From Calditrichaceae bacterium (lineage in GTDB: Bacteria > Calditrichota > Calditrichia > RBG-13-44-9 > J075), in contig JABWBP010000005.1 of assembly GCA_013360445.1 (NCBI GenBank), forward strand, positions 20,487 to 84,486: a stretch of DNA of 64,000 nucleotides, in the 5' to 3' direction. The notes under the pieces were generated by a model that was not told the DNA's origin, ran no database searches, and saw only the letters and a list, made by a program, of their open reading frames with translations. How positions within the stretch are numbered: position 1 is the first letter of the stretch; the number at the start of each line of letters is the position of its first letter. Positions 1 through 18,841 of this stretch are shown piece after piece. The translations under genes and the position numbers were made by a program.

Positions 1-2018
1 GCGTGCTGCCAGTTCCGGGAGAGATAATTTTCGTATCCCTGCTGAAAATGCTCCAGCGTCTCGCGGATTTTCCCATCCGGCGCGTTTCCTTTCAGGGAGA
101 GCAATTCGTACACTTTCACCGGCGCCTGCTTTCCCTTTACCCGCAGCAAATCCAGTTGCCGCACCACCACTTCATCCTGCACCAGCCGGTGGGTCTCCTC
201 GCTGATCATGATCCCGGTGCCGTAAAACTTGTTCGCCCCTTCCAGGCGGGCGCCTAAGTTCACGGAGTCGCCGATGGCGGTGTAATCGAAGCGGATCTCC
301 GAACCCATGTTGCCGATCACCATCGGCCCGCTGTTGACGCCGATGCGCTGGTGCAGGTCCGGCAGGCCGCGCTTTTTCCAATCCTCGCGAATCTTTTCCA
401 ATCCTTCCTGCATCAGCAGCGCGGTGGCGCAGGCTTTCAGGGCGTGGTTGCCCACGTCGAGGGGCGCGCCGAAGATGGCCATGATCGCGTCGCCGATATA
501 TTTGTCGAGGGTTCCCTGGTTCTTCAAAACGATGTGGGTCATCTCGTTGAGGTATTCGTTGAGCAGTTTGACCAGCTCCTCCGGCGCGGTAGCTTCGGAG
601 AGGTTGGTAAACCCGGCCAGGTCCGAGAACAGCACGGTGCAGAGCTTCTTTTCCCCGCCCAATTTCACCAGCTCCGGCTTCTTCAAAAGCTCATCCACCA
701 CGTTGGAAGAGACGTAGTGGGTGAAAATGCGTTTGATTTCGCGTTTGTCGTGCTCCTCCACCCGGTAGCGGTAAGCGTAGTGAATGGCGTAGGTGAACAG
801 CACCGCCAAAAAGGGCGCGATCACCGGGAGCCAGAGGAATTTCAGGGCAAACCCCAGCCAGGCGGTCAAAAAGGCCAGCCCGTACACCGCCACGCTGGCC
901 GCCACCCCGCCCACCGGGCGCAGGAAGGCGAATACCAGCCCGGCAAAGATTCCGACCAGGAGAATGAACAGAAAGTGCCCGCCTTTGGACATCTCCCGGA
1001 TGAAGTGGTTGTTGAGAATCTGCCAGAAGACGTTCGCGTGAACCTCCACGCCCGGGAAACTGGGCTGCCAGGGGGTGGAGCGGAAGTCGCCCAGCCCCGG
1101 CGCGGAAGCGCCGATGAACACCACCTTGCCGGCGAAAAATTCCAGGGGCACTTCTTCTTTGAATAAATTATAAAAGGAGATGTAGCGAAAGGTTTTGAAG
1201 GGGCCGTGATAATAGACCAGGGTTTTGCTCTTCTCGTCCGTGGGAATGCGCACCGAGAAGCCCGAGGGGGTCAGCAGCTCCATTTCCCGGCGTTCCGGGC
1301 GCCAGTGCAATTGATCCACTTCCAATTCCCGCATGGCCATGGCCACCGCCAGGGTGGGATAGACGTGGTCGTTGAAGCGCAGGAAGAGGGGAACCCGGCG
1401 GGAGATGCCGTCTTTATCCGGGGAGAGGTTTACCGCGCCGATGCCGGCGCTGGCGTTGTGCAGATCGGGAAATTCCGGCTCCATGCGGTCGATGGCGTCG
1501 AGGCGGAACATCAGCTCATCAGGCACCTCCAGGCGGAAGCGGTCGGCCTGGAAACCGGCCGGCTCGGAGGCCATGGCCTCCAAAAAGTTGTCCACGTCCA
1601 TGGGGGTCAGCACAAAGGCGGTGAAGACGTTTCCGTGCGCCCGCGCCGCCTCCACAAAGCGTTTATCCTCCTCCGGGAAGCGGTTGCTGCGGTCGAAGAG
1701 CACATCCATGGCCACCATGCGGGCGTTAGCGCGTTTCAGGGTTTCCAGAATTTGCGCCCAGTAGGTGCGCGGCCACTGGCTGAAGGAGCCTAACTCTTTC
1801 AAAGTGCGCCCGTCGATGTCCAAAATGATAATATCTTCGATGGGATTCTGCGGCGGCTCGATGATCTTGCGCACCCGGTAGTCGTAGGTGGCGGCCTCGA
1901 ATTTGTAGAAAAACTCTCCCAGGGCCCCGAAAGTGGTCATGATCCACACTCCCAGGCTTGCCACCGCGCCCGATCCCAGCCCCATCCAGAGCTTTCGCAG
2001 AAATCTTTTTTTGCGCAT
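1..2018 (-). CDS. CHASE2-domain sensor adenylate/guanylate cyclase (class III). The N-terminus is in the window; the C-terminus runs off the window edge.
   Basis: Manual reverse-strand translation from the ATG at 2016-2018 gives MRKKRFLRKLWMGLGSGAVASLGVW (TM helix). A CHASE2-like periplasmic region and 3 further TM helices follow. The cyclase core motifs are present: LFSDLAGFT, KYIGDAIMAIFGAP, RIGVNSGPMVIGNMGS, FDYTAIGDSVNLGARLE. There is no stop before position 1, so the gene is absent from the ORF track. Confidence 0.85.
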   Translation of the reverse strand, partial: MRKKRFLRKLWMGLGSGAVASLGVWIMTTFGALGEFFYKFEAATYDYRVRKIIEPPQNPIEDIIILDIDGRTLKELGSFSQWPRTYWAQILETLKRANARMVAMDVLFDRSNRFPEEDKRFVEAARAHGNVFTAFVLTPMDVDNFLEAMASEPAGFQADRFRLEVPDELMFRLDAIDRMEPEFPDLHNASAGIGAVNLSPDKDGISRRVPLFLRFNDHVYPTLAVAMAMRELEVDQLHWRPERREMELLTPSGFSVRIPTDEKSKTLVYYHGPFKTFRYISFYNLFKEEVPLEFFAGKVVFIGASAPGLGDFRSTPWQPSFPGVEVHANVFWQILNNHFIREMSKGGHFLFILLVGIFAGLVFAFLRPVGGVAASVAVYGLAFLTAWLGFALKFLWLPVIAPFLAVLFTYAIHYAYRYRVEEHDKREIKRIFTHYVSSNVVDELLKKPELVKLGGEKKLCTVLFSDLAGFTNLSEATAPEELVKLLNEYLNEMTHIVLKNQGTLDKYIGDAIMAIFGAPLDVGNHALKACATALLMQEGLEKIREDWKKRGLPDLHQRIGVNSGPMVIGNMGSEIRFDYTAIGDSVNLGARLEGANKFYGTGIMISEETHRLVQDEVVVRQLDLLRVKGKQAPVKVYELLSLKGNAPDGKIRETLEHFQQGYENYLSRNWQH

Positions 2019-2044
2019 GCCGTCCCTTTCGCCAGAAATTGACG

Positions 2045-2058
2045 GCCTAAATTTAGGC
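2045..2058. promoter_or_regulatory. Perfect 14-bp palindrome GCCTAAATTTAGGC about 30 bp upstream of the cyclase start; possible operator site.
   Basis: Exact dyad symmetry seen directly. The position relative to the start codon at 2018 suggests a regulator binding site. Confidence 0.25.
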
Positions 2059-2157
2059 AGGCGAAGCGGATTAGCAAGGTAAAAAATATCTCGCCCGGCA
2101 ACTGTTTCAAGGCTAAAGCCTGTTCGCCCGACAGTAAACAACAGGGAGGGCGATCCG

Positions 2158-2217
2158 ATGAAAAGCATCGCTGGTGCAAAAAAGAAGCGCGCCGCGGCGC
2201 GCCTCGAAGAAGAATAG
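2158..2217 (+). CDS. Possible 19-aa small basic peptide, MKSIAGAKKKRAAARLEEE.
   Basis: ATG is preceded by a strong Shine-Dalgarno (SD) sequence, AGGGAGGG, at 6-nt spacing. It is too short to support by composition and could be chance. Confidence 0.15.
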   Translation: MKSIAGAKKKRAAARLEEE

Positions 2218-2245
2218 TTGAACGGTTTCGTTTCTGGGCCGCGTC

Positions 2246-3142
2246 TCAGCGCAGCAGCACCATCTTCCGGGTTTGCCGGTAATTTCCGGCAACGAAATGA
2301 TACAGATACACACCTGAAGCCGCTTCATTTCCCCGCTCATCCCGGCCATCCCACTTCACCCGGTGCGTTCCCGCGGGAAATTCTCCATCGGCCAGCGTTT
2401 TTACCAGCCGCCCCCGGATGTCGTAAATCTTCAGGGTAACCGCGCCGTTCATTGGCAAATCGAATTGGATGATGGTTTCCGGGTTGAAGGGGTTGGGGAA
2501 ATTCTGGTGCAAAGCATACGTCTGCGGCATGCTGCTCACCTGAACCCGTTCGAGATTGTTTTTGGCAAAGAGGGTTCCCTCTCTTTCTTTCGGGTAAAAT
2601 TCCTGGATGTGAATCCGTTGAGCCTTCCAACTGCCCAGGAGATGCTCAATGGTCTGCAATTGCAGAACTACTTCCCTGCCGACAAAGGGCTGTAAATCAA
2701 TTTCCAGTGAATCCTGCCAGCTAAACTGGGAACCGTTCAGAGAATCCAGGGCAATTTCCCGCGCGCTCAGCAAAGGTTCGCCGTTGCGATGGTCTATCAA
2801 ACGCAGGCGCAGCAAGGGCAGGTGGGGAACCGCGCCGGTCTTTCTCATATCCCGCACCCGGGCGCGCGCTTTCAGGAATGCTGATTGCACCTCACTGTCC
2901 ACAATTAGAGGAAGGGTTTGCAGGAAGCGGGAGGCGGAACCGCCTTGCGCCAACGGATCAAACCGCCAAACCCGCAGGCTGTCCGGAGTGCGAATCTGAA
3001 TATCCCCGAACAATAGCGCCGCCCGGCCTTCCAGGTTCAGGCCCGGCAAATCCTGCAAGCGGAAAAGCTCTTTGCGGTATTGTTTCTCCGCCAGGGTGCT
3101 GGCTTCCTGCCTTATAACGGAAAACCGGGAAATGAACCCCAT
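2246..3142 (-). CDS. C-terminal portion of a T9SS cargo protein (Por secretion C-terminal sorting domain). Probably the 3' part of one gene interrupted by a frameshift with 2958-4475.
   Basis: The C-terminus NFPNPFNPETIIQFDLPMNGAVTLKIYDIRGRLVKTLADGEFPAGTHRVKWDGRDERGNEAASGVYLYHFVAGNYRQTRKMVLLR is a canonical T9SS CTD. There is an in-frame stop at 3167-3169 just upstream of the annotated M. Confidence 0.6.
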   Translation of the reverse strand: MGFISRFSVIRQEASTLAEKQYRKELFRLQDLPGLNLEGRAALLFGDIQIRTPDSLRVWRFDPLAQGGSASRFLQTLPLIVDSEVQSAFLKARARVRDMRKTGAVPHLPLLRLRLIDHRNGEPLLSAREIALDSLNGSQFSWQDSLEIDLQPFVGREVVLQLQTIEHLLGSWKAQRIHIQEFYPKEREGTLFAKNNLERVQVSSMPQTYALHQNFPNPFNPETIIQFDLPMNGAVTLKIYDIRGRLVKTLADGEFPAGTHRVKWDGRDERGNEAASGVYLYHFVAGNYRQTRKMVLLR

Positions 3143-4475
3143 TTTGCTCCCGGTCCCACGCCACGCCTAACCGGAGCAACCCGGTGTGATAAGCAATGCT
3201 GGGAGAGCGGTTCTTTCCCCAGGAGGCGGTAGAGCTTAAGCGGGTTTCCGCGCTCCAGCTCTGGCCGTTGTCGGTAGAGGCGGTGTAGTAGATGTTGCCG
3301 CCGTCTTCATATACCAAATGCCAGGTTCTATCTTCATCCACTACTACCCGGCGGCCGTTGTTGTAGGCGGTGGCGGCAGCAGAGTTGCTGGCCAGGTGGC
3401 CTTTGAAATTGGCAATAACCGTGGCATTGTCCTGGGTGAAAATCACCGGGCTTTCGTAGTAGCCGTTCACCGGATTATTGGGTTCAGTGATAGTAGCATA
3501 ACTGGTTTCCCAATGTTGAAAATACCAGGTAATATTTTGCCCATGAAAAGGAATCATAGTATCCTGACGTGCACGAACAGCATAGTAAGGCTTGCCTGGT
3601 AAAACAGTTTGATTCAAAAATATTCCTTTATAAAAATCTCCAGAATTTGGTTCAATCACCAACGGTGAGGGGTGGGTATGCCAAAGGGGTGCGGTTCCGC
3701 GGTTTTGGGGAATCCCACCCAATTCCGGACCATCTGACAACCACGGGTCCTTAAAACCGATGTCTCCTTTTTCAACACTTGCAGATAACAAATATACTCC
3801 CAACGTAGCACTCTTAACCGACTTGAGCCAGGAGATCAGTTGATCCATAGAACTATCAATTAAGAAAGCTCTATAATTCAATACATCACTTTCATCATCG
3901 TTCCAGTGATGGTATTTCTCGGGAGGGTTTTCCACCAGACCCGTATCCGACCATATTGTTTCACTCTGTTGTAGAGTCAGCCAGACATGAAGGGGATCTG
4001 GAACCCACAGGTCGCGCCAGTGAGGATTGGTATAATGTTTCAAATAATTCCCGGTGAGATCCAGCATATTTTCTCTTTTGACAAATACATCGACATTTTG
4101 AGGTGTGCCCCCTTTTCCAATAGTGATGGTATCAGAAGTTACCATAAAGCCCGGACCTGTAATATCCGCATAAATTTGATAAAATTGATTCGGATGTCCA
4201 TCCGGACTAACGTGATACAAATTATATCCGGAAGATCTTATTTGGAATGGCCCGTTTGGATTGGCATACCATACATAAAAGTAATTCGCTGAAGGCGGTA
4301 TAGGGTTGCCATTCAGATACAAATCAGCATAAACTTCGGAATTCCATTCATGGCCGTTGGGATCCCAGCGAAAATCTTCCCCCCGCACTTGTACAGTATA
4401 GCCGCTTTGTGCCGATAACCTGCTTACCGGAAGCAACAGCAAGATTGAAAAAATAAGTTTGAGGTAATAATTCAT
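2958..4475 (-). CDS. Secreted BNR/Asp-box repeat protein (sialidase-like propeller start), N-terminal portion. The last ~60 residues of this frame look like an out-of-frame read-through.
   Basis: SD TAAGGAG is followed by ATG and the signal peptide MNYYLKLIFSILLLLPVSRLSAQ. A BNR motif YYTASTDNGQSWS is present. The frame after ...WDREQNG becomes low-complexity G/P/A-rich and overlaps 2246-3142 by 185 nt in another frame. Confidence 0.6.
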   Translation of the reverse strand: MNYYLKLIFSILLLLPVSRLSAQSGYTVQVRGEDFRWDPNGHEWNSEVYADLYLNGNPIPPSANYFYVWYANPNGPFQIRSSGYNLYHVSPDGHPNQFYQIYADITGPGFMVTSDTITIGKGGTPQNVDVFVKRENMLDLTGNYLKHYTNPHWRDLWVPDPLHVWLTLQQSETIWSDTGLVENPPEKYHHWNDDESDVLNYRAFLIDSSMDQLISWLKSVKSATLGVYLLSASVEKGDIGFKDPWLSDGPELGGIPQNRGTAPLWHTHPSPLVIEPNSGDFYKGIFLNQTVLPGKPYYAVRARQDTMIPFHGQNITWYFQHWETSYATITEPNNPVNGYYESPVIFTQDNATVIANFKGHLASNSAAATAYNNGRRVVVDEDRTWHLVYEDGGNIYYTASTDNGQSWSAETRLSSTASWGKNRSPSIAYHTGLLRLGVAWDREQNGVHFPVFRYKAGSQHPGGETIPQRAFPLAGFAGPEPGRPGGAIVRGYSDSHSGQPAGLAV

Positions 4476-4506
4476 GATGGTTTCTCCTTATGTTTATAAA
4501 ATGGTG

Positions 4507-5613
4507 TTAATTTCTCCTTCCCATTACCAGGACATCATGATTATCCACATATCCTACCGTTACCATGAGGTTGTCGCTTACAGCTAAACCTTCAAAAGAA
4601 CCGGTAGCCATCATTAAATCCTCATAAGTTTGCCAGCTTGATCCATTATAATGTACACATAATCCAAACGCACCGACGACAAAGATATTGTTCAAGGCGC
4701 TTCCCCGCACGCGGGTCGAGAAATAATTTGGTATGAGAATTTCTTCCCATTGATGTACTTTCCAAACCCTTAACCCACTTCCACTTACAAAAACCGGAGA
4801 GTTTATATCAAACCAGGTACTATGAAGACGACGGGATAATGTCCAATTCAAGGTATCAGCAATTCCGTTAAGCGCTATAGATAAGAGGCGGTATTCTCCC
4901 ACATAATACCGGTCAGAAACAACCGCCAAAATGGTGGTTTGCCCGGTTGCTCTATCTAAAACTCCCCAAATATCATTAATGTTGGTATGGGTGCCACTCT
5001 CAATCCGCTGCCAATTGATGCCATCGTAATAGAAGATATTGCCTTTTTTACCAACCCCCCAGAGATCAGTGTTTGAGCTTCCCCAAAATTGTCTGATTCC
5101 TCCGAATGTGGTATCATTCAGATCATCGAACAAGAATTTCCATTCACTCCAGCTTTGTCCATTAAATCTAATGACTTCACCTCCATCGGTTGTCCAAACA
5201 TCATTTGGAGCAAAAGCGAATACACTCTGCAATGTGCTGATTATGAAAGAGTTTGTGTTGAATATTTTCACTGGAATTTTTTTCAACTCCCACTTTTGCC
5301 CATCCCAATGGACTGCGTTATGGGGGTTATACTGGCCAGAGGAATCTAGTACATGAATTTCACCCACTGCCCAAATGTCGTTTTCATTAATGATACATAC
5401 ATCTTTCAGAATGCTGGCGTTTCCGTCCCCGAAACTATAGGTTGTCCAGGTAAAGTTATGGCTGGTAGTGTCGGGTTTATTGGGAGGCGGCGGGGGCGGC
5501 GGTTCGGTGCCGGATTTTTCACAACTGCAAGCCAGCAGGAGGAAATGTAAAATGTAAAATGTAAAGTGTAAAATGCGGTGAATACGAATTTCAGGAGACC
5601 GGTAGCGCATCAT
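4507..5613 (-). CDS. Lipoprotein with beta-propeller-like Trp-containing repeats (DIWAVG, NDVWTT, TDLWGVG, NDIWGV, NIFVVG).
   Basis: SD AAAGGAG lies before ATGATG. The signal peptide MMRYRSPEIRIHRILHFTFYILHFLLLAC has an LLAC lipobox, followed by a polyproline linker. There are about 5 repeats with G-x-W / WxxG spacing. The ORF track extends to 5781 but the SD supports a start at 5610-5613. Confidence 0.7.
   Translation of the reverse strand: MMRYRSPEIRIHRILHFTFYILHFLLLACSCEKSGTEPPPPPPPNKPDTTSHNFTWTTYSFGDGNASILKDVCIINENDIWAVGEIHVLDSSGQYNPHNAVHWDGQKWELKKIPVKIFNTNSFIISTLQSVFAFAPNDVWTTDGGEVIRFNGQSWSEWKFLFDDLNDTTFGGIRQFWGSSNTDLWGVGKKGNIFYYDGINWQRIESGTHTNINDIWGVLDRATGQTTILAVVSDRYYVGEYRLLSIALNGIADTLNWTLSRRLHSTWFDINSPVFVSGSGLRVWKVHQWEEILIPNYFSTRVRGSALNNIFVVGAFGLCVHYNGSSWQTYEDLMMATGSFEGLAVSDNLMVTVGYVDNHDVLVMGRRN
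5545..5575. repeat. Tandem heptamer array (TGTAAAA)x4.5 lying inside the lipoprotein signal-peptide coding region.
   Basis: aatgtaaaatgtaaaatgtaaagtgtaaaatg, seen directly. Its reverse complement encodes HFTFYILHF. Confidence 0.6.
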
Positions 5614-5941
5614 TGACTCCTTTATTTGAGTTTCGGGAAAATACGCATTCTTCCCGGTGGGAGGCGGGCGGATTTGTTGAAGAATCTCAGGCGGGTAAGG
5701 AGAGAAAAAAGCAGAATAGAATATATTCCTCTTTCTCGCGCAGAAACTGGCGCAGAAGAGAGGATTTGCAAGGCTGTTCATGGCATTCTCCCCATTGAAT
5801 CACCGTTGTTACTCCGGGGAAATCGGCCACTTCCTCTATGGATGGCGCGTCAGGGGGAGGAGGCGTTACAATATCCGTACCACCGGTTCAGGCAACCACG
5901 TTTCCTTATTACGGCAGCAAGTTAAACTCAGGCATTCTCAA

Positions 5942-5985
5942 AAAACATGACTTTGGTCAGGTTAAAACATGATTTTGGTCAAGTC
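5942..5985. repeat. Two tandem 22-bp direct repeats, AAAACATGAYTTTGGTCARGTY.
   Basis: aaaacatgactttggtcaggtt and aaaacatgattttggtcaagtc, adjacent to each other. They lie in the spacer upstream of the lipoprotein gene. Confidence 0.5.
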
Positions 5986-6080
5986 TTTTAAGGAGGGAGG
6001 GCGGCAACACCGCGATTAGAGCGGGAGAGGTTACGGCGGAAAGGGTGGTGGGAAAAACACGGGGTGATCGAATTGCTAAC

Positions 6081-6190
6081 TGGTTGAATGGTTGGATGGT
6101 TGGATGGCTAAGTGGTTAAACGGTCGGCTGGCCATTTAGCCATTTAACCATTTACTCATCCATCCATCAATCCATTACTCCATTACCCCA
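6081..6190. repeat. Long imperfect hairpin: TGG-word array (TTGGATGG, CTAAGTGG ...) immediately followed by its complement, a CCAT-word array.
   Basis: tggttgaatggttggatggttggatggctaagtggttaaacggtcggctgg | ccatttagccatttaaccatttactcatccatccatcaatccattactccattacc. It sits at the 3' end of the aminotransferase gene. Confidence 0.6.
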
Positions 6191-6200
6191 TGATACTCCC

Positions 6201-7487
6201 TCAATCTCGGTCGAAGCCCAGCAGCAGTTCCATCAGGCAGTCGATGTCATCTTCATTATTATAAAAGTGGGGGGAGACGCGGATGAAGCCGTTGCGCAGG
6301 GAAACGTGCACCCGGCGGCTCTTCAGGTGCTCGAACAAAGCGGGGGCGTTGGAATGGTGGAAGGTGACGATGCCGGAGCGGGATTCCGGCTCTAAGGGAG
6401 TGTAAATCCGGTAGCCGTTCTCTTGCAAACGCTCGATGAGGTAAGCGGTAATATAAAGAATGCGCTGCTCGATGGCGCGGGAGCCAATTTCCAAAAACAT
6501 CTCCAGGGAGGCGCCGGCCCCCGCCACGCCCGCGGCGTTGTAATTGCCCGGCTCGAAGCGCTCCGCAGTCGGCAAAAATTTCAGCTCATACTTGAAAAAT
6601 TCCCAGGAATCCTCCACGGAGAGCCAGCCTGCGGCCATGGGGTGGACTTGCTCGAAAATCCGCGGGGAGATGTACATGAACGCGGTTCCTAACGGCCACA
6701 TCAGCCACTTTTGCCCCCCGGAAACCAGGAAATCGATCCCGCTTTCCTGCACGTCCAAATGCAGCGCGCCCAATCCCTGGATGCCGTCCACGCAAAAAAT
6801 AACGTTATTTTCCCGGCACAGCCGCCCGATCTCTTTCAAATCGTTGCGAAAACCGTTCAAGAACTCCACGAAGCTGATGGAGAGCAGGCGGGTTTGGGGG
6901 CGAATCATGGCGGCGATATCCTCCAACTCGATCCGGCCGTCGCGCTGCTTTACGAAGTCGATCTCCACCCCGCGGCGCTGCAAGTTCAGAAAGGGGTACA
7001 CGTTGGAGGGGAATTCGAAATCGTTCAGCAGGATGCGCTCCCCGGGTTTCCACTCCAGTCCCTGCGCCAGCCAGTTCAGCCCCATGGAGGTGCTGTCGGT
7101 AAGGGCCAGGTATTCCGGCGCCGCGTTGATGAAACGGCCCAGCAAATTTTTGAAGCTGCGTTTGACCTCTACCAAATCCGGCCAGAACTCGATGTTGCCG
7201 CAGGAGCGTTCCCGGTTGTGGCGCTCGATGGCGGCAATCGCTTCGCTGTGCATGGGCCCCAGGGCGGCGTGGTTCAAATAGACCATCGCGGGGGATGGGG
7301 CGTTTATTTCGGCCAATTTGGGGCCGAAAGCGCCGGCCAAACCGGCGTGGTTATTTCCGTTGGATTCCCGGTACGGGGCTATCAAAGCCGGCTCCGCCGG
7401 GCTGAAGGTATGGGGGAATAAAGCGCGGTATTTTTTCCAATCGACTGCGGCGCCGCGCTTTTCCCTGCTCAGAACCATGTTTTCCAT
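6201..7487 (-). CDS. Class V aminotransferase-fold PLP-dependent enzyme (cysteine desulfurase / epimerase-like).
   Basis: SD GGAGAAG lies before MENMVLS. A PLP-lysine region, SGGQKWLMWPLGTAF, is present. The length and motif order fit the class V fold. The ORF track extends to 7544 with an earlier start. Confidence 0.8.
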   Translation of the reverse strand: MENMVLSREKRGAAVDWKKYRALFPHTFSPAEPALIAPYRESNGNNHAGLAGAFGPKLAEINAPSPAMVYLNHAALGPMHSEAIAAIERHNRERSCGNIEFWPDLVEVKRSFKNLLGRFINAAPEYLALTDSTSMGLNWLAQGLEWKPGERILLNDFEFPSNVYPFLNLQRRGVEIDFVKQRDGRIELEDIAAMIRPQTRLLSISFVEFLNGFRNDLKEIGRLCRENNVIFCVDGIQGLGALHLDVQESGIDFLVSGGQKWLMWPLGTAFMYISPRIFEQVHPMAAGWLSVEDSWEFFKYELKFLPTAERFEPGNYNAAGVAGAGASLEMFLEIGSRAIEQRILYITAYLIERLQENGYRIYTPLEPESRSGIVTFHHSNAPALFEHLKSRRVHVSLRNGFIRVSPHFYNNEDDIDCLMELLLGFDRD

Positions 7488-7769
7488 GTTGCTTCTCCAT
7501 ATCCCGGCGATATCACAGCTTCCGGACGCCGGATGGCAGACCATCGTTTATCATTCACCCTGAATGGCAGGCAGGTGAATTCGCAATAGTGAATTCGAAT
7601 CTAATTTTGAAAGGGAGATCACACCACGGGGCGGCGACGCCCCGGGTATTGGGGAGAAACCTCGCTCCGCGGGGATGCTCACCCGCTTCGCCGTAGGGGA
7701 AAAACGAGCCTGCCCTCGTCTCCGCCGCTCCCAATAATCCCCGGCCGGGCGCTCCCCTCCCGCCGCATT

Positions 7770-9419
7770 TTATGAAAGCGCCAGCGCCTCGGCCAGGTTT
7801 TCTTCGAATTCCCGGAGAATTTCTTTGAACTGATCGGGAGAATAGAAACTGATCTCGTGAAGCATCATTTCCGGCGCCTGCCTTTCGGAAGGCCGCCAGC
7901 GCCAGCGAAAACCGTCATCGGACTTCACCAGCGCCTTCAAACGCCGGTTTTCCCCGTCGCGCAGCAACATGGAAATATCCACCTGCACCGGGGCGCCATT
8001 CACCACCGCGGTCGCCGCAACCTGTTCGTTCTGGAACAGCCGGGGGACAAAAGAAACCGGGTATTTCGAGTAGGTTTTGAGCAAGAAATAGACGTGCAGC
8101 GCAAAGACCCACACCGGGTAAGCGGCTTCCAGGTCTTCTAATTGGAAGGGCGGCACCTGGCCTTTTTTCTTGCGCTCCTGGTAGATCACCGCCCAGAGAT
8201 CCGAGGGATTGGGGATGTAGTTATGAATGGAAATCTGGCTGATGAAGATTTCCAGGGCGTAAGTGGGCAATTTTTCGTAAGTCACGTCGCGCACGTCGGA
8301 ATTGATGATGTTCAGGTGTTCCAGGCTCTCGACAAACTTACGGTGATCCATCTCGCAAATCGCCAGCCAGTCCTCCCGGGCGCCAATGCCGCGCAGGTAG
8401 TTGAACAACTCCACCTGGTTGGCGTTTTCTAACAGCACCTGCTGCACTAAGTGTTTCCAGTTATCCAACTGGTCCTGCACCAGGAAATAATTTTCCAGAA
8501 CGCTGCGCACCTCTTTATCGGTAGAATCCTGCAAAAACAGGATCCGAAACTCTTCCACGCTTTCCTCCACGTTGCCCATTTCTAACTTCAGGAAGGCTCT
8601 TCTTTTGCGCCAGAAGTAGCTTTCCGGTTCTTTTTTCAAAATGGCGCTGATCCTGGCCAGGGCTTCTTCGTGCTGATCATTGCCGGCCAGGTAGCCGGTT
8701 TCCAGCTCTACCAGATCCAGCTCATCCAGGGAGACCAGGTGGGGCACCGATGCTTTCAGGATTTGATACACTTCCGCGGGAGATTTTTTGCCGCTCTGGC
8801 TGGAAAGCTGCAAATAGCGTTTCAAGAGGCGCTTGTTGGCGGGATCGCCCAACAGGGCGTCGCGCATTTTGGTGAAGGCCGCGGCGTGTTTGTTCAATTG
8901 CAGGAGCGCTTCCGCCTGCTGTTCCGCAAACAGGAACGGTTTGCGCAGCAGGGTTTGATATTCGCGGATGAGGTTCAGGGCTTCCTCCGCCCGGCGGTGC
9001 TCGATCATCAGGGTAACCAGGCGGGAGAGCACGTAGAGATCATTTTTGCTCTCCGTGAGCGCTTTTTCATAGTCGGTCATGGCCTTTTTGGAGTCCTGCA
9101 ATTCCTCGAAGATCTTGCCGCGCAGGAAATAAGAAAAAGGCAGGTCGGGATGGTGGCGCACCAGGCGGTTGGTCATGGTCAGCGCCTTTTCCGGCATGTC
9201 CAATTTGAGGTATAAATTAGATAAACGGGTAAGCAAATGGGGATGGTTGGGTAATTTTTCCAGGGCCAACAACAAGGTTTTTTCGGCTTTTCGATAGAGC
9301 TGCAATTCCTGAAATTCTTTTGATAGCGCCAGGTAATTCCTGAGAACCTCCGTTTCCGGAATTTGCTTGTAGATTGCTTCCATGCGAACGATCCCTGTTA
9401 AAGTGTCCCTTTGTTCCAT
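7770..9419 (-). CDS. TPR-repeat protein with an unassigned C-terminal domain.
   Basis: The N-terminal half has repeated 34-residue helical repeats with the TPR A/L/Y pattern. No catalytic motif was recognised. Confidence 0.7.
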   Translation of the reverse strand: MEQRDTLTGIVRMEAIYKQIPETEVLRNYLALSKEFQELQLYRKAEKTLLLALEKLPNHPHLLTRLSNLYLKLDMPEKALTMTNRLVRHHPDLPFSYFLRGKIFEELQDSKKAMTDYEKALTESKNDLYVLSRLVTLMIEHRRAEEALNLIREYQTLLRKPFLFAEQQAEALLQLNKHAAAFTKMRDALLGDPANKRLLKRYLQLSSQSGKKSPAEVYQILKASVPHLVSLDELDLVELETGYLAGNDQHEEALARISAILKKEPESYFWRKRRAFLKLEMGNVEESVEEFRILFLQDSTDKEVRSVLENYFLVQDQLDNWKHLVQQVLLENANQVELFNYLRGIGAREDWLAICEMDHRKFVESLEHLNIINSDVRDVTYEKLPTYALEIFISQISIHNYIPNPSDLWAVIYQERKKKGQVPPFQLEDLEAAYPVWVFALHVYFLLKTYSKYPVSFVPRLFQNEQVAATAVVNGAPVQVDISMLLRDGENRRLKALVKSDDGFRWRWRPSERQAPEMMLHEISFYSPDQFKEILREFEENLAEALALS

Positions 9420-9521
9420 ACCTCAGCCCTGAGGCATTATAACGAAGTGAGCATAATTTATACAAAACCGTCACCCCAATTTTGATGATTTGCCCAAAAT
9501 GGCGGGTGGGAAAAATAAATA

Positions 9522-9602
9522 AGTGAGAAGTGGGAGGTAAGAAGTGGCAAGTAAGAAGTGAGAAGTTGCAAGTGAAAGGTGCAAATTCTCACTTGCAACT
9601 TA
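9522..9602. repeat. GAGAAGT-word heptamer array (8 units, NNNAAGT) ending in a short complementary segment.
   Basis: gtgagaagtgggaggtaagaagtggcaagtaagaagtgagaagttgcaagtgaaaggtgcaaattctcacttgcaactt, in the divergent spacer. Confidence 0.6.
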
Positions 9603-9656
9603 CCCCGTCTTGTTTGTAAAATCAACTGGTAAGCTCACCCTCCCAAAGGAGAAATA

Positions 9657-10058
9657 ATGACCTATGAAGATTGGGTAAGGCAGGTGCCAGATAGCATCAG
9701 GATTGATCCGCTATGGGCTTTTCAGGTTTATCCGAAGGCATTGTTTCTTTCGGATTTGGCCTGGGAGGATAGTGGAAAGATGTTAAAAGATGCCCGGGGA
9801 CGCAAAATCGCCGACCAATTGATTGACAGCGCCGGCTCTGTTAGCGCAAATATCGAAGAAGGTTTTGGCAGGGGATTTGGAAAAGACTATGCACGATTCT
9901 TGAGCATCTCTTTAGGCTCTGCTCGCGAGTGTCGCGGTTGGTACTATCGAGGAAGACGGTTGCTCAGCGACAATGTTCTCCGGCATCGATATCGTCTGCT
10001 GGATGAAATAATCGCCTTGTTAACAACACATATTCAAAAGCAGCGGAAGCATAAATGA
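9657..10058 (+). CDS. Four-helix-bundle protein of the TIGR02436 family (23S rRNA-intervening-sequence protein / Avd-like).
   Basis: SD AAAGGAG at 6 nt from ATG. The central motif SAGSVSANIEEGFGRGFGKDYARFLSISLGSARECRGWYY matches the family core (SNIAEG.GR ... FL.IA.GS). Length is 133 aa. Confidence 0.8.
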   Translation: MTYEDWVRQVPDSIRIDPLWAFQVYPKALFLSDLAWEDSGKMLKDARGRKIADQLIDSAGSVSANIEEGFGRGFGKDYARFLSISLGSARECRGWYYRGRRLLSDNVLRHRYRLLDEIIALLTTHIQKQRKHK

Positions 10059-10192
10059 GAAGTTAGAAGTGAGAAGTTGCAAGTGAGAAGTTGCAGGTTG
10101 CAAGTCAGAAGTGAATCTTCACCACCCTCTCACTTCTCACTTCCCACTTCTTACTTCCTACTTCTTACTTCTCACTTGCAACTTCTCACTCC
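10056..10192. repeat. Long imperfect hairpin: forward GAGAAGT-word array, then the reverse ACTTCTC-word array.
   Basis: tgagaagttagaagtgagaagttgcaagtgagaagttgcaggttgcaagtcagaagtgaatcttcaccaccctctcacttctcacttcccacttcttacttcctacttcttacttctcacttgcaacttctcac. It starts at the stop codon of the four-helix-bundle gene and overlaps the stop of the convergent ABC gene. Confidence 0.65.
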
Positions 10193-11163
10193 CTCATCCA
10201 GCAGCGCACCTCCTGGCCGGAAGGGAGAGAAAGCGGCGGCGGGGGATCGAGCCGGCAGCGTTCCGCCGCTTCCGGGCAGCGGGGGTGAAAGGGGCAGCCG
10301 GGAGGCAGGGCGCCCGGGGAGGGAATCTGGCCGGGGATGGGCGACAGCGCGCCGCGGGGTTTGTCCAAGCCGGGGATGGTTTGCAGCAGCAGGCGGGTGT
10401 AGGGGTGCTGCGGGGAGGCAAAAATCTGCTCGATGGAGGCGCTTTCCACGATCTGCCCGGCGTACATCACTAACACGCGCTGGCACACTTCCGCAATCAC
10501 CCCCAAATCGTGGCTGATGAAGATCATGCTCATCCCGCTCTCCCGCTGCAAATTTTTCAGCAGCTCCAGGATTTGCACCTGGATGGTCACGTCCAGGGCG
10601 GTGGTCGGCTCGTCGGCGATGAGGATTTCCGGGCGGCAGGCTAAGGCCATGGCGATCATGACCCGCTGCTGCAAGCCCCCGGAAAGCTGGTGGGGATACT
10701 GCTGAAAGCGCCGTTCGGGATCGGGGATGCCCACCCGCGCGAATAATTCTAACACTTCCCGCTGCGCTTCCCGGCGGGTTTTGCCGGAGTGGAGGGTCAG
10801 CGCTTCCGCGGCCTGCTCCCCGGCCTTGAGGACCGGGTTGAGGGCGCTGAGCGCCTCCTGGAAGATCATGGCGACGCGCCGCCCGCGAACTTTTTGCAGC
10901 GCTTTCTCCGAAGCCTGCCACAAATCCTCCCCCCGGAAGAGCACGCTGCCGGAGCGGTACAGCGCCGGCGGGGAGGGCAGCAGGCGCAGCAGGCTGAGGC
11001 AGGCAACGGTCTTGCCGGAGCCGCTCTCCCCCACAATGCCCAGGGCCTCGCCGGGGTGGAGATCGAAAGAAATGTCGCGGAGGATGGGCAGGGTTCCGTT
11101 TTCGCTGCGGATGTCGAGGTGGAGATTGCGGGCTTGCAGGATGGGAGTGGTTTTTTCAACCAT
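10186..11163 (-). CDS. ABC transporter ATP-binding protein, oligopeptide/dipeptide (OppD/DppD) type.
   Basis: Walker A GESGSGKT, signature LSGGLQQR, Walker B ILIADEPTTALD, and the C-terminal oligopeptide-type extension with cysteines. Confidence 0.85.
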   Translation of the reverse strand: MVEKTTPILQARNLHLDIRSENGTLPILRDISFDLHPGEALGIVGESGSGKTVACLSLLRLLPSPPALYRSGSVLFRGEDLWQASEKALQKVRGRRVAMIFQEALSALNPVLKAGEQAAEALTLHSGKTRREAQREVLELFARVGIPDPERRFQQYPHQLSGGLQQRVMIAMALACRPEILIADEPTTALDVTIQVQILELLKNLQRESGMSMIFISHDLGVIAEVCQRVLVMYAGQIVESASIEQIFASPQHPYTRLLLQTIPGLDKPRGALSPIPGQIPSPGALPPGCPFHPRCPEAAERCRLDPPPPLSLPSGQEVRCWMRE

Positions 11164-12030
11164 AGTAAAACAGCGCCCACAAAAACGGAGAAGTGAAAAT
11201 AATCGAATCGAAGCGGTCCAAAAAACCCCCGTGCCCGGGCAGCAGGGTGGAGGTGTCCTTCACCCCGGCGTCGCGCTTGAAGCGGGATTCCACCAGGTCG
11301 CCGATCTGCCCGAAAATCCCCACGATCGCGCCGCAGGCCAGGGAGTAGGTTAGCGGCAGGCCGGGAAGGAAAAGCTTTCCCAGCAGCATAAAACTGAGAA
11401 TCCCGAACAGCAGCCCGGCAATCGCTCCTTCCCAGGTCTTGTTGGGGCTGACCGCGGGCGCTAATTTGTGCTTGCCTAACTTGCGGCCGGCGGTGTAGGC
11501 GGCGGTGTCGCAAATCCAGATCGCGCCAAACATGACGATGATCAACCGCCCCCCGGCCGGGGAGATGGGCATCCCGAAAGTGGGCAGCCAGCTTTCCAGC
11601 CCGGTCAGGGAAACGCTCTCCGCCGCGGCGGGCATCCACTCCGCAAAATTCAGGCGCAGGCGCAGCAGGGTGGAGAGGAACAGGGTGATGTAAGCAAAGC
11701 CGGTAATCGTAAAAGTGGCGTTTTTGCTCGCCAGCCCTTCCTGCTTGCTCAGGTGCACGAATAAAATATACACCAGGGCCAGCAGCAGCAGGCTCTCCCA
11801 ATGGCCGGGATAGAAAAACGCCGCCAACAGAAAAAAACTGCTCAGCACTAACGCCGGCGCGCGGTAGGGATAGATCTGCTTGTGGTGGTACATGGTATAA
11901 AATTCCCACAGCGCCATTCCGTTGATGATCAAAATCAAGGCCAGGAAATAATAGCCGCCTAAGTAGGTTAGCAGCAGCAGCAGGGGAATTCCCCACAAAG
12001 CCACGCCGATTCGCTTGCCTAATTCGCTCA
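11156..12030 (-). CDS. cdsA: Phosphatidate cytidylyltransferase.
   Basis: Polytopic membrane protein with the C-terminal signature SPNKTWEG ... GHGGFLDRFDS. The likely start is the GTG preceded by AAAGGAG; the ORF track extends to a TTG at 12055. Confidence 0.85.
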
Positions 12031-12046
12031 CAATTTCTCCTTTGCG

Positions 12047-12165
12047 GGTGTCCAAGTGTTTAAGTGTTCAGGTGTTATAGTGTTTTAGTATTAAGGTGCT
12101 TTCCTAAATTTCGATCACAAGACGGCCATAACACATGAACACAATAACACTTAAACACTTGATCA
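12047..12165. repeat. GTGTT-word array, then a ~30-nt loop, then the AACAC-word array (long imperfect hairpin).
   Basis: gggtgtccaagtgtttaagtgttcaggtgttatagtgttttagtattaaggtgc ... ccataacacatgaacacaataacacttaaacacttgatcac. Confidence 0.6.
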
Positions 12166-12900
12166 CTGTAGTACCCGCGGAATGGTAGTGCGGAAATCCC
12201 GGAACAGGTGGTAGGCGTTTTCCAGGTAATCGACGGCGCGATCCCACTCCCGCTCGCTAACCGCCCGCAGCAGTTGGGCGATTTCTTCCTCAACGCCCAT
12301 AAATTGGTAGAATTGCACCGTATCCAGCAAACGGGCGATCACCCGCTCCAGTTCTTTTTGATTGCGCTCGGAGATGAGACGCAGGAGGGTCAGGTAGATA
12401 TTTTCGAAGTGCAGAATGAAGCTTTCTCTCATGCGCTCGTAGGATTTGCCGGGCGGCGCGGCGAGCGGGTCCGGGGCGAGGGCCGCCTCGGTGAATTTAT
12501 TTTGCTGCTGGCGGTTCAGCAGTACGAAGTTCATCTTGCGGATCAGGTCGCCGCGTAAAAAAGGTTTGGTGATAAAATCATTGGCGCCCATCCGTAACGC
12601 CTGCATCAGGGTGGCGCTGTCGGTGCGCGAGGTGATGATGATAACCGGGATGGCGCGGGTTTTTTCCATTTTCCGCAGCCGCTCCAGGGTCTGGAAACCG
12701 TCTAAGTGGGGCATGATCACGTCTAAAAAAATTAAATCCGGGCGGTACACCAGCGCCAGTTGGATGGCATCCTCTCCGTTGGTGGCGGTAGCCACCCGGC
12801 AATCCCTGCCGGTCAGCAGGTCGGATAGAATCTGCCGGGTAACCGGGTCGTCGTCCACCACTAACACATTGATCCTGGTTTTCTCTGGCTGCGGAACCAT
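12163..12900 (-). CDS. Response regulator with a receiver domain and a C-terminal ~120-aa helical domain of unknown output.
   Basis: VLVVDDD ... D ... the receiver-fold pattern with conserved Asp and Lys positions. The C-terminal half is helical with no recognisable DNA-binding motif. Confidence 0.75.
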   Translation of the reverse strand: MVPQPEKTRINVLVVDDDPVTRQILSDLLTGRDCRVATATNGEDAIQLALVYRPDLIFLDVIMPHLDGFQTLERLRKMEKTRAIPVIIITSRTDSATLMQALRMGANDFITKPFLRGDLIRKMNFVLLNRQQQNKFTEAALAPDPLAAPPGKSYERMRESFILHFENIYLTLLRLISERNQKELERVIARLLDTVQFYQFMGVEEEIAQLLRAVSEREWDRAVDYLENAYHLFRDFRTTIPRVLQ

Positions 12901-12912
12901 CTTCCCCTGTTT

Positions 12913-13887
12913 TTACAAATACCGGTCCACAAACTCTTTCAGCTCGAACACCCCGTCTTCCAGGATAATCTTATCGGCCATGGAAATGGGGGATTCCTCG
13001 AAATAAATATTTTCTACTTGCAAGTTATCCGATAATTTACTCACCAACTCTTTGGGATTGTTTTGCACAAACCGTACCGGGTAAGTCCTTTTTAACAGCA
13101 CTTTGGCGGTTTCCCCGGCCACGAAAAGGGATTTATTCATGTGCTTTGCCATGACGGCGATGGCGTGGGTGCCGGTTTTGTTCACAAAAGTGGTTTCCGT
13201 AAAGCGGTCGGTGCCGGTTAATACAAAATGGCACTCCTCCACCGCCCGGGCGATATCCGCATCCGGCACCAGGCGCACCTTGATCCCGGCTTTGGCGAGG
13301 CGGTAGGCCATTTGGGTGCCTTCATTCAACGGGCGGCTTTCGGTGCAGATCACCCGGAAACGCTTTTTCTGCCGCCGCGCTTCCATCAGAATGGATTCCA
13401 CCACGCTGCTGGCGGAGTGGGTCAGGATGACGTGGTGGTCGAGAATCAGGCGGCATCCCCAGCGGGTAATCACCTTCACGTTGTCTTCCGCGCGCTGGCG
13501 GATTTGAACGATCTCTTCCAGGGTGGCGTCGCGGATGGAGTTGATATCCTTCTGCTCTTTGGGAATATTCTGAATGAATATCAATACGTGGCGGGTGCGG
13601 TTATAGATCAACGCCATCAACGGTTTGGCGCGCACCAGGGCGTTGCTCAACTTGGAGAGAGCCTGAATCAACTCGGTGCGGTTTTTGTACAACTGCCGGC
13701 GAACAAAGTCATCCACAATATCTAACGCCTGGTTGGCCAGGTAAATGGAACCGTGCGTGGAATCATCGCGGATTTTGGCGACGTCCGTTCTCCAATACTC
13801 TAAGCCGTCATCTTCCGAGCCATTCAATTCGTCGATTTCTTTACTTGCCTTGATTTCTTTGCTTGCTTTGCTACTCGACATTTTCAT
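12913..13887 (-). CDS. eIF-2B alpha/beta/delta family protein (sugar-phosphate isomerase-like, MtnA/e2b2 family).
   Basis: Family-typical segments: VILTHSASSVVESIL, RVICTESRP, GTDRF. About 320 aa. Confidence 0.65.
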   Translation of the reverse strand: MKMSSSKASKEIKASKEIDELNGSEDDGLEYWRTDVAKIRDDSTHGSIYLANQALDIVDDFVRRQLYKNRTELIQALSKLSNALVRAKPLMALIYNRTRHVLIFIQNIPKEQKDINSIRDATLEEIVQIRQRAEDNVKVITRWGCRLILDHHVILTHSASSVVESILMEARRQKKRFRVICTESRPLNEGTQMAYRLAKAGIKVRLVPDADIARAVEECHFVLTGTDRFTETTFVNKTGTHAIAVMAKHMNKSLFVAGETAKVLLKRTYPVRFVQNNPKELVSKLSDNLQVENIYFEESPISMADKIILEDGVFELKEFVDRYL

Positions 13888-14191
13888 CCACCCATGTTAA
13901 GTATTTCAAGAATCCCTCATTTACCGGCAGAGCCAGGATTTCCGGTATCTCATAAGGATGCAAAGATTGAATGCGCTGTTCGAGGCGCCCGTAAACGTCG
14001 GTGTGGGATTTGATCATCAGCAGGTATTCGCGGTCATCGCAAATTTCTCCCTTCCAGCGATAGATCGAGCGCAGCCCCGGGATGACGTTGCAACAAGCAG
14101 CCAATTTCTCCGTTACCAGCGCCCGGGAGATCGCTGCGGCGGTCGCCTCGTCGGGAACGGTACAGAGTATAACGTAATATTTTTGATTCAT
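13871..14191 (-). CDS. cutA: Divalent-cation tolerance protein CutA.
   Basis: 106 aa, VILCTVPDEATAAAISRALVTEKLAACCNVIPGLRSIYRWKG ... HPYEIPE, the typical CutA1 pattern. It overlaps the downstream gene by 17 nt. Confidence 0.85.
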   Translation of the reverse strand: MNQKYYVILCTVPDEATAAAISRALVTEKLAACCNVIPGLRSIYRWKGEICDDREYLLMIKSHTDVYGRLEQRIQSLHPYEIPEILALPVNEGFLKYLTWVDENVE

Positions 14192-14250
14192 AGGCTGTCA
14201 AATATAATGATTTCAGATACTTAAAATCAAGCTGATTTTCTTGCTGAAAA

Positions 14251-14333
14251 GTTGCGAGTGAGAAGTGGCAAGTGGCAAGTGGTAAGTGGCAAGTGAGAGG
14301 TAGTAATTCCACTTCCCACTTGCCGCTTCCCAC
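14251..14333. repeat. GAGAAGT/GGCAAGT-word array followed by its complement (hairpin).
   Basis: gttgcgagtgagaagtggcaagtggcaagtggtaagtggcaagtgagaggtagtaattccacttcccacttgccgcttcccac. Confidence 0.6.
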
Positions 14334-14426
14334 TAAATTATTGACATCCGCTTTGCAAATGGCGGAGAGGATTAGTTATATTGGCTCCCGCCATTTTGAG
14401 GGCGCCGGGCTGATAAGCGAATAAAT

Positions 14427-15272
14427 ATGATGATTGAGATCCTCCGACACACCTTTTGGGAGACCCTGGAGATTTCCGGGTTAGTGTTTGTCGCCCTGGT
14501 GGCGATGGACCTGGCCTACGTGTATTCTCGCGGTCAAATGCTCTCCTTCCTGCAAAAATACCCCCGCGCCCAGTACCTCATCAGCGCTTTCCTGGGCGCC
14601 GTTCCCGGTTGCGAAGGCGCTTTTTTAGCGGTCTCCCTCCATACCCACGGATTGATCACCTTCGGGGCGCTGATAGCGGCGTTCATCGCCACCACCGGCG
14701 ACGAAGCCTACGTGATGTTCTCCGAATTCCCTCTCGCCGCCCTGGGATTGACTGCGCTGCTCTTCTTAATAGGCTACCTCGCCGGCTGGCTGGTCGATGT
14801 AGCGCAAAAACGGCGGCGCGGCGGGCACGAATTCCATTGCGTGACGGCTATTTTTCATCCCGCGGTCAAGTTTTCCTTCCGGCACTACACCCTCGACCAT
14901 GTCTGGAACCACATCATCAAGCAGCACATGATCAAAATTTTTCTGTGGACTTTTGCGGCCATTTTTTTGATCGAATGGGCAATAACCGCCTACCAGTTGG
15001 AGCAATTTTTGAGCGACAAACCGTATTTAATGCTCTTAGCAGCAGGGCTGGTGGGGTTGATCCCCCAGAGCGGCCCGCATCTGATTTTCGTGAGCATGTT
15101 CATGGAAAAGACCATTCCGTTTTCGGTTTTGTTCACCAATATGCTGGTGCAAAACGGCCACGCCCTGCTGCCCCTGCTCTCGGTATCGCTCAAGGATTCC
15201 CTGGTAATCAAGGGGATCGGCCTGGCGCTCGGCCTGCTGCTTGGCGGCGCCCTGATGTGGGGGGGCATGTGA
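14427..15272 (+). CDS. Polytopic membrane protein, putative permease with a two-fold internal repeat; family uncertain.
   Basis: About 8-10 predicted TM helices. PGCEG is present in the first half and there is a duplicated architecture. No confident family name. Confidence 0.6.
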   Translation: MMIEILRHTFWETLEISGLVFVALVAMDLAYVYSRGQMLSFLQKYPRAQYLISAFLGAVPGCEGAFLAVSLHTHGLITFGALIAAFIATTGDEAYVMFSEFPLAALGLTALLFLIGYLAGWLVDVAQKRRRGGHEFHCVTAIFHPAVKFSFRHYTLDHVWNHIIKQHMIKIFLWTFAAIFLIEWAITAYQLEQFLSDKPYLMLLAAGLVGLIPQSGPHLIFVSMFMEKTIPFSVLFTNMLVQNGHALLPLLSVSLKDSLVIKGIGLALGLLLGGALMWGGM

Positions 15273-18839: not shown

Positions 18840-18841
18840 TT

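Follow-up and report, generated by a model that had tools for sequence, protein, structure and literature searches.

A sharp GC step inside a type IX secretion cargo gene of a Calditrichaceae bacterium, and its probable origin at the edge of a recombining module

Results

We have analysed 64,000 nucleotides (nt) of a Calditrichaceae bacterium (GCA_013360445.1, contig JABWBP010000005.1, positions 20,487 to 84,486), a stretch called the window here, in which a beta-propeller lipoprotein gene and a gene for a cargo of the type IX secretion system (T9SS) form a two-gene cassette, and where the guanine-plus-cytosine (GC) content changes abruptly inside the cargo gene. Of the source genome, which is a metagenome-assembled genome (MAG), the analysis covered this window. 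The window is identical to contig JAPKGE010000011.1 of GCA_026648155.1, and GCA_964522165.1 and GCA_011526015.1 are near relatives of its genome, with 89–95% nt identity in syntenic genes. All features of the cassette and of its upstream junction lie on the reverse strand. In the order of transcription, the cassette begins with a leader arm (5446..5985; some 370 non-coding nt at the 5′ end and about 56 initial codons of the lipoprotein gene), continues with an AT-rich, cassette-specific core of GC 0.42 (3474..5446; the lipoprotein body and the N-terminal 334 codons of the cargo) and then has a GC-typical arm, module B (2363..3457), which is interrupted by a deletion here and measures 1.7–2.0 kb in intact copies.

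Throughout the text, W is the cassette copy in the window, P the cassette at locus L011 and S the cassette at locus L100, while the Logan contig L098 and the JGI contig L099 both carry a W-type cassette. The N-terminal part of the cargo is called A, the conserved 3′ module B, and the portion of B that begins directly after the deletion junction B2. The closest intact cargo homologue, P0002 (1041 amino acids (aa), locus L011, GCA_964522165.1), was used as comparator; P0054 (950 aa, L099) is a W-type cargo copy, 96–97% nt identical to the window and free of the 875-nt deletion.

GC content is 0.427 between 3440 and 5580, compared with 0.578 at 1–3440, 0.565 at 6200–9200 and 0.551 over the whole window, and this segment is the lowest of all segments of 2141 nt (mean 0.550, standard deviation 0.034). 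With two change points, the fit returned a low-GC block at about 3401–6266 and GC values of 0.58, 0.44 and 0.57 before, within and after it. An earlier, sequence-only reading of this DNA had described a fall from about 60% to about 35% GC; the strong low is real, but its depth was overstated, since we measured 42–44% against flanks of 57–58%. The same reading had placed the island at 3440–5580 with a boundary inside an open reading frame (ORF). Its left edge stands: the maximum-likelihood change point in GC is at 3474 (support 3392–3499) and that in GC at third codon positions (GC3), from 0.39 to 0.70, is at codon 334, nt 3473 (support codons 328–337), both within the 505-aa ORF. The right edge has to be moved, as a GC of 0.45–0.49 persists up to a change point at 6269 (support 6206–6288). 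It thus coincides with the stop codon of the adjacent aminotransferase gene and not with the TGTAAAA array, as had been proposed; that array (5543–5575), like position 5580, is located in the signal-peptide codons of the lipoprotein. Both island genes have a GC3 of 0.44–0.46 (median of the window genes 0.71), and the composition-normalised tetranucleotide signature of the core correlates with its own genome at r=0.57, where ordinary 2-kb windows reach 0.82 ± 0.03. The island is atypical in GC, GC3 and signature alike.

The step in composition coincides with a step in homology. Between W and P, the lipoproteins are 46% identical in aa and cargo residues 1–350 about 42%, and the DNA of these parts is unalignable; from window position 3457 to 2363 the identity is 89–97% nt, before it drops again in the final 40 or so codons. 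The jump in identity falls within about 50 nt of the GC step, and a passage from about 42% aa to 89–97% nt identity over so short a distance bears out a genuine intragenic recombination breakpoint at about 3460. Taking the GC3 change at nt 3473 together with the onset of high identity to P (3457) and to S (3404), the breakpoint between core and B can be placed within 3404..3491. Given that the hosts are 89–95% identical in syntenic genes, module B is at or above orthologue-level identity while the cores cannot be aligned. The third cassette, S, whose cargo is an S8 peptidase, shares with L099 a module B that is 95.5% nt identical over 1708 nt, along with A parts of 29–31% aa identity and a core 29–34% identical to that of W. 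Altogether, module B is 90–96% nt identical in the three cassettes W, P and S, and the core of W has 29–46% aa identity to those of the other cassettes with this module; among strains with the same cassette the core is 98.5–100% nt identical. Identity within B is patchy, with stretches of 100–400 nt that are 100% identical between W and S next to others of 85–92%, and the pairings vary along the module.

These three cassettes occupy three different loci. W is found between an ECF sigma factor gene (an aminotransferase gene in the window) and a CHASE2 cyclase gene, P between the genes for a NiFe hydrogenase and an alanine dehydrogenase, and S upstream of an ABC ATPase gene, at a site that is empty in the window (11160/11163).

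The comparison of strains carrying the same cassette indicates which parts change. The window and L098 show 0 differences in 2469 nt covering the lipoprotein, cargo A and B1, whereas 31 of 630 sites differ in B2, from the deletion junction on, and the leader differs by 16%. Likewise, the leader is only 84% identical between the window and L098/L099 despite cores that are 98.5–100% identical. As the core is unchanged where B2 and the leader differ, it is the arms that appear to have been overwritten and the core that has stayed stable. The leader is common to different cassettes (80.6% identity with L100, 91.5% over 176 nt with L069 and 74% with L082) and shows fine-scale mosaicism between unrelated cassettes.

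The AT-richness itself extends far beyond this genome. Where the background GC is above 0.44, 21 of 23 loci have a lipoprotein gene that is richer in AT than the DNA around it (mean difference 5.3 points), and the regression of lipoprotein GC on host GC has a slope of 0.52. At the corresponding place of the cargo gene, 19 of 25 loci show a rise in GC3; that in L011 (0.39 to 0.69) is as sharp as the one in the window, and those in L017 and L077 are strong too. The AT-rich 5′ part is consequently a trait of the family and not a peculiarity of the window genome.

Such a trait invites an explanation without recombination, in which a fast-evolving surface core drifts towards AT while B is constrained or subject to GC-biased conversion. 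AT-biased mutation is universal in bacteria, A is less conserved than B in the family (in P0006, A about 45% and B about 60%), the AT bias is found across the family and follows host GC (the slope of 0.52), and the frequent breakage of cargo genes described below suggests weak selection. Point mutation, however, cannot lead from unalignable sequence to 95% identity over some 50 nt when the two genomes are about 93% identical, nor can it leave 0 differences in 2469 nt beside 31 in 630 nt between two strains. We therefore consider drift a quite improbable account of the step, and at most a complementary process that gives the reason for AT-rich cores.

The sequence-only reading had gone further and taken the step for a recent insertion that grafted a foreign N-terminal module and signal peptide onto a resident cargo gene. 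No recent foreign graft is supported by our comparisons, and a recombination breakpoint at the GC step is. L098 and L099 have the same A/B arrangement as the window, and the sister-genome cassettes L011 and L100 have the same GC step at the corresponding place, which speaks against a recent event in the window genome. The fusion is not new either, for both the N-terminal part and the lipoprotein encoded upstream have homologues in family members of the same architecture. The evidence favours the reverse exchange, with the GC-typical B as the part that is common to three cassettes at three loci. As for a donor lineage, none was identified: a search with the N-terminal 346 aa against 5.8 billion proteins returned only 6 matches, the nearest at 63% identity, and no low-GC donor, and among 17 other host backgrounds none matched the tetranucleotide signature better than the window's own genome. 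Around the cassette there are neither mobility genes nor flanking repeats, the two cassette genes being the only ones between 2246 and 6200, and no tRNA gene was found in 1–20000. A classical integrative island was rejected for this locus: the atypical composition and variable presence are there, while integrase or transposase, tRNA target and flanking repeats are not.

Spelled out as a rival, the sequence-only reading would have a foreign AT-rich segment (the lipoprotein gene and a new N-terminal module with its signal peptide) arrive recently by horizontal transfer and take the place of the 5′ part of a resident T9SS cargo gene, by double crossover in the leader and B arms, which amounts to a swap of cores. 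The atypical GC3 and tetranucleotide signature of the core would agree with it, conserved arms on both sides offer potential crossover sites, B-sharing cassettes of sister genomes do have different cores, and cassettes are gained and lost among close relatives. On the other hand, the nearest relative of the core is only 63% identical and no host background fits its signature; the core is the best-conserved part of the cassette among strains (98.5–100%) and the arms are what differs; with B-sharing cassettes at three loci, swapping would need relocation too; and cassettes of GC-rich hosts show the AT bias generally, which disfavours many independent recent imports. We regard such an import as unlikely, even if core swapping may operate as an alternative or complementary process.

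It was also essential to exclude that the contig joins two organisms at 3440 and/or 5580, particularly as the window comes from a MAG and its upstream context is unlike that of strains L098 and L099. Ten Logan contigs from ten runs match the window with 99.9–100% identity over 2292–5905, spanning 3474, 3107 and 5580, and at least 7 further Logan contigs match with 100% identity over 10103–5896, spanning the 6002–6200 junction and thereby crossing from the aminotransferase gene into the cassette. The same join of core and B is present in the JGI contig L099 and in the Logan contig L098. Both edges are reproduced by independent assemblies, so the contig is not chimeric. A residual point in favour of an artefact is that the Logan contigs from either side all stop at 5896–5905, inside the leader that recurs between cassettes; yet these approximately 10 nt are the sole stretch without an independent short contig. 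MAG contig L101 spans them, but it matches the window at 100% and is probably the window's source, and so does not count as independent. In two exact-pattern scans of metagenome contigs for the 5990–6002 junction no JGI match was obtained, and the Logan contigs later confirmed this junction. Taken together, an assembly artefact is hardly credible as the source of the step.

In the window, the cargo gene is broken. The 505-aa ORF (2958..4475), whose product is identical to MCK6622111.1 / NUQ40147.1, is native cargo only from residue 1 to about 455, comprising a Sec signal peptide, the N-terminal beta domains and the first propeller blades; its last 50 or so codons (2958–3110) are out-of-frame read-through of module B. 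The ORF as such matches no family, and its AT-rich core part has no Pfam or NCBIfam domain. The native frame resumes past the deletion in a 3′ remnant (2246..3106) inside a second ORF (2246..3142), which encodes the beta-sandwich and a T9SS type A sorting domain (about 2258–2500) and is 92.8% nt identical to L011 12265–13007. That a T9SS C-terminal sorting domain (CTD) lies downstream, as had been proposed, is confirmed by TIGR04183 at residues 215–295 of the second ORF (34.6 bits, cut-off 23; 34.7 bits in the intact P0002); PF18962 scored 26.7 bits (cut-off 27) and Pfam FlgD_ig 44.8 bits. The claim that the island is joined to it in frame did not survive, since the sorting domain is read in another frame than ORF 2958..4475. 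At the deletion junction (3091..3111), 875–880 nt are missing in comparison with L099 (3570–4432) and L011 (11391–12265) and the frame is shifted, the switch falling at 3107–3111; in the intact copy, both ends of the deleted segment carry an imperfect 11-nt direct repeat (GGGAAGcCAGC / GGGAAGaCAGC). No single ORF of the window joins the Sec signal peptide to the sorting domain, as one does in P0002 (1041 aa). The 875-nt deletion, by shifting the frame, makes the cargo gene in the window a pseudogene, while the upstream lipoprotein gene is intact. A terminator-like GC-rich hairpin followed by a T run (2184..2205), 41 nt past the cargo stop codon, is the probable 3′ end of the cassette transcript.

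Strain L098 has the same 875-nt deletion, and P0054 has its own deletion of 52 nt ahead of the CTD. Including a 1-nt lesion in L100, there are three independent frame-breaking lesions in B-carrying cargos (875 nt in the window and L098, 52 nt in L099, 1 nt in L100), which suggests weak selection on these cargo genes. Cargo genes of the clade are recurrently broken 5′ of the sorting domain, at about 4965 in L099 (window 2524–2575) and at P coordinate 12118 in L100, and in L016 (1390–4447) the cargo is fragmented into three ORFs; the lipoprotein genes next to the broken cargos remain intact.

Intact copies of module B code for a beta-propeller of sialidase fold, followed by a disordered linker and a beta-sandwich, and also include the start of the CTD. 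In the P0002 model, N-terminal beta domains are followed by a low-confidence linker (376–380), the sialidase-fold propeller, a disordered stretch, the beta-sandwich and the CTD. The breakpoint between core and B is found on the last beta-strand of the N-terminal domain block, 10–25 residues ahead of the propeller linker, and the GC step is hence close to a domain boundary. The downstream part had been called a BNR region. Its fold does resemble sialidase propellers: Foldseek retrieved sialidases such as 2w38 (root-mean-square deviation 4.4 over 292 columns, E 1e-6), with a query model of moderate quality (pLDDT 72.5). Support from the sequence is weaker, as no BNR family reached its threshold in P0002 (PF13088, BNR_2, 13.5 bits with a cut-off of 31.4; PF02012, 11 bits with a cut-off of 27), although one clear Asp-box (STDNGQSW) is visible.

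The lipoprotein gene (4507..5613; 367/368 aa) is intact and encodes a lipobox (LLAC), a proline-rich linker and a seven-bladed beta-propeller. Read from the translation, the signal peptide ends in the lipobox as MRYRSPEIRIHRILHFTFYILHFLLLAC, followed by SCEKS, and the cysteine aligns in most homologues. In the AlphaFold2 model (pLDDT 92.5) the protein folds into a propeller of seven blades, and a structural search with it gave Ycf48 proteins as the top matches (E 4e-13, TM 0.6–0.7); no Pfam or NCBIfam family matches. The nearest structures, the Ycf48/HCF136 propellers (PDB 5oj5, 2xbg), share 14–18% identity with the lipoprotein, which is lipid-anchored and comes from a non-photosynthetic host, and the likeness is one of fold only. 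Homologues of the lipoprotein number 1610 at E<1e-5; a scan of species-representative genomes located 123 loci in MAGs of Calditrichota, Ignavibacteria and KSB1, often several per genome, and many are followed by a T9SS cargo gene with P0002-like domains. NCBI calls several family members "glucosyl transferase" (P0100, P0124, P0125, P0135, P0150, P0163, P0166, P0168). Considering the predicted seven-bladed propeller and the absence of a glycosyltransferase domain, this is probably a mis-annotation that has been propagated.

The hydrophobic part of the lipoprotein signal peptide is encoded by the heptamer array, 4.7 copies of TTTTACA on the coding strand (5543..5575). Phase-variable contingency loci have repeats in signal-peptide codons, as in the CTCTT repeats of opa. 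The array does not differ between the window, eight Logan contigs and L098, and L099 has the same copy number with one adjacent base different; phase variation through it was ruled out, the copy number being invariant in 10 contigs. In the homologous lipoprotein genes of L082, L011, L100 and L069, heptamer-like runs occupy the corresponding signal-peptide codons. At least 20 tandem arrays of 7-nt period occur in the window, mostly intergenic, with many inverted pairs that fold into long hairpins, as at 6070–6200 (see below) and at 10050–10180 (dG −47.5, z −5.7). Examples are found at 9521–9566, 10058–10190, 14263–14295, 18893–18931, 21625–21733, 25004–25124, 29284–29335, 42962–43059, 52686–52724 and 60429–60467. 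The TGTAAAA array belongs to this genome-wide class, yet it is inside a coding sequence.

At its upstream end the leader is bounded by a tandem pair of TGACCAAArTCATGTTTT (5942..5981), which forms its outer edge and within a few nt of which the homology to L098, L099 and L100 begins; the pair is possibly an operator or promoter element. A scan of the leader for sigma-70 promoters found matches no commoner than in shuffled sequence. A riboswitch or another structured RNA in the leader, considered on the idea of a BtuG-like, B12-regulated protein, was discarded, as Rfam on 1–12000 gave nothing except spurious miRNA-model hairpins. Between window 5749–5924 and positions 1–176 of L069 (MAG contig WYBG01000470), the identity of 91.5% is in non-coding sequence, and the lipoproteins are only 34% identical. 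A junction segment (6003..6200) separates the leader from the aminotransferase stop codon (6201) and carries a hairpin of 8-nt repeats at 6070–6200 (dG −43.5, z −3.8).

The upstream contexts of the cassettes are an ECF sigma factor gene in L098/L099 and an aminotransferase gene followed by a CDP-alcohol phosphatidyltransferase gene in L082/L100, and the cassette site is differently occupied in L082, L100, L098 and L099. Homology between cassettes starts at the same nucleotide in four upstream contexts (window 5985–6002, L098 2857, L099 662, L100 1190). In L098 and L099, a divergent ECF sigma factor gene and a small zf-HC2-like ORF are situated directly upstream of the cassette, which suggests that the cassette may depend on this sigma factor. 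In two sister genomes, another lipoprotein and cargo cassette separates two operon genes that are neighbours in the window; its insertion point is precisely their overlapping stop/start ATGGTTGA (window 11156–11163; L082 9197–15334; L100 about 1190–6700). In L082, ATGG is present at both cassette junctions, like a target-site duplication, and no recombinase gene was seen.

Two neighbouring regions also vary. A 668-nt AT-rich segment between heptamer arrays (9521–10189) contains a 23S-rRNA-IVP / four-helix-bundle gene (9657–10058, forward strand, PF05635, GC3 0.47); L082 and L100 have just 134–160 nt there, which makes the segment a small insertion/deletion polymorphism. Downstream of the cassette, 1–1930 on the reverse strand encodes a class III nucleotidyl cyclase that has a CHASE2 domain and measures 768 aa in L099, with 10 nonsynonymous and 1 synonymous codon differences between the window and L099.

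Discussion

We favour, as the probable explanation, that the locus is a mosaic paralogous cassette with an old AT-rich core and recombining conserved arms, the GC step being the edge of the B arm. According to this explanation, a cassette would consist of an outer-membrane beta-propeller lipoprotein gene followed by the gene of a T9SS-sorted secreted protein, would exist in several divergent copies per genome, and would have its core (lipoprotein body and cargo N-terminal domains) flanked by the leader arm and the module B arm. The arms would be alike enough between copies to recombine, through interlocus gene conversion or exchange among closely related genomes, and would for that reason be repeatedly overwritten. 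The cores would be too divergent for recombination and would retain their old history and composition. Homologous recombination or gene conversion as the mechanism, and a direction in which arms move and cores stay, are what we infer from the comparisons, as would be any function of the pair. In the lineage of W, a later step would have been the loss of 875 nt between short direct repeats, which put the sorting domain out of frame. This is an ordinary mechanistic explanation for a composition and phylogeny discontinuity that is real and well supported.

Several points weigh against it. Only one B-carrying cassette per genome was seen, in MAGs that are incomplete, and conversion donor copies are unsampled. 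The same data can be read as divergent cores swapped between conserved arms. The AT-richness and odd tetranucleotides of cores in GC-rich hosts are left unexplained, even at 45–60% aa divergence, and no low-GC donor of the core emerged among the 5.8 billion proteins or by signature matching. Two candidate causes of the AT-richness are drift towards AT in weakly constrained cores and a GC-biased conversion that acts on the arms. Moreover, the position of the cassette varies by strain, homology starts at the same leader nucleotide in three contexts, and in one relative a cassette sits at an exact insertion point, flanked by ATGG on either side; such precise cassette ends hint at a mobility mechanism outside simple gene conversion.

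The mosaic cassette resembles known diversifying systems in some respects. In Porphyromonas gingivalis, T9SS-exported surface proteins diversify by rearrangement of their domains and by allelic exchange or gene conversion (Dashper et al. 2017, PMC5266723). As in the exchange of adhesin domains among Kgp, RgpA and HagA (PMC5266723), the proteins are T9SS cargos with a CTD, domains of paralogues are reshuffled by recombination or conversion, and the mosaic departs from the genome phylogeny. Unlike in P. gingivalis, the exchanged unit here is a C-terminal propeller module together with a non-coding leader, the lipoprotein gene upstream varies together with the N-terminal part of the cargo, the variable part stands out by its AT-rich composition, and the hosts are uncultured environmental Calditrichaceae.

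O-antigen and capsule loci and pilE/pilS-type conversion have an AT-rich divergent centre between conserved crossover arms, with sharp breakpoints. Our cassette shares with them the divergent AT-rich centre, the conserved arms and the sharp breaks in composition and homology. It differs in that the copies are at different chromosomal loci and are not alleles of one locus, that there are no silent donor cassettes or biosynthetic genes, and that the arms, not the core, vary between the closest strains.

Polymorphic toxins of the Rhs and CDI type combine a conserved delivery part with a variable, lower-GC tip and an adjacent cognate gene. A conserved secretion module, a variable module, a sharp GC drop within an ORF and a co-varying small neighbour gene are found in our cassette as well; its variable part is N-terminal, the reverse of the Rhs/CDI polarity, because the T9SS signal is C-terminal. 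Unlike toxin immunity genes, the neighbour is always of one family, the beta-propeller lipoprotein. A polymorphic-toxin cassette proper was rejected, with no toxin domain in the W core by Pfam and NCBIfam and a partner gene of the same family throughout.

It is conceivable, although we judge it rather unlikely, that the cassette is a dedicated T9SS surface-protein diversification system in which portable arms re-pair payload and lipoprotein cores with delivery modules and move between loci. The portable arms would be the leader, with the tandem TGACCAAArTCATGTTTT pair and the signal peptide encoded by heptamers, and the C-terminal module from the propeller to the CTD. If this is true, the system would parallel polymorphic-toxin or antigenic-variation cassettes with the polarity reversed, the AT-richness of the core would be part of how it works, and the precise cassette ends and the cassettes at synteny breakpoints would stem from a mobility mechanism not yet recognised.

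A sharp intragenic GC step, then, need not mean a recent foreign insertion; here it is the edge of a recombining module beside an old AT-rich core. For annotation, it should be noted that the 505-aa "secreted protein" of public MAGs is the truncated product of a pseudogene. The analysis defines an uncharacterised and very widespread gene pair of Calditrichota and Ignavibacteria, a Ycf48-like lipoprotein with a T9SS cargo, with more than 1600 lipoprotein homologues, and the AT-rich cores that the family keeps in GC-rich hosts offer a small natural test case for models of GC maintenance that set biased gene conversion against AT drift.

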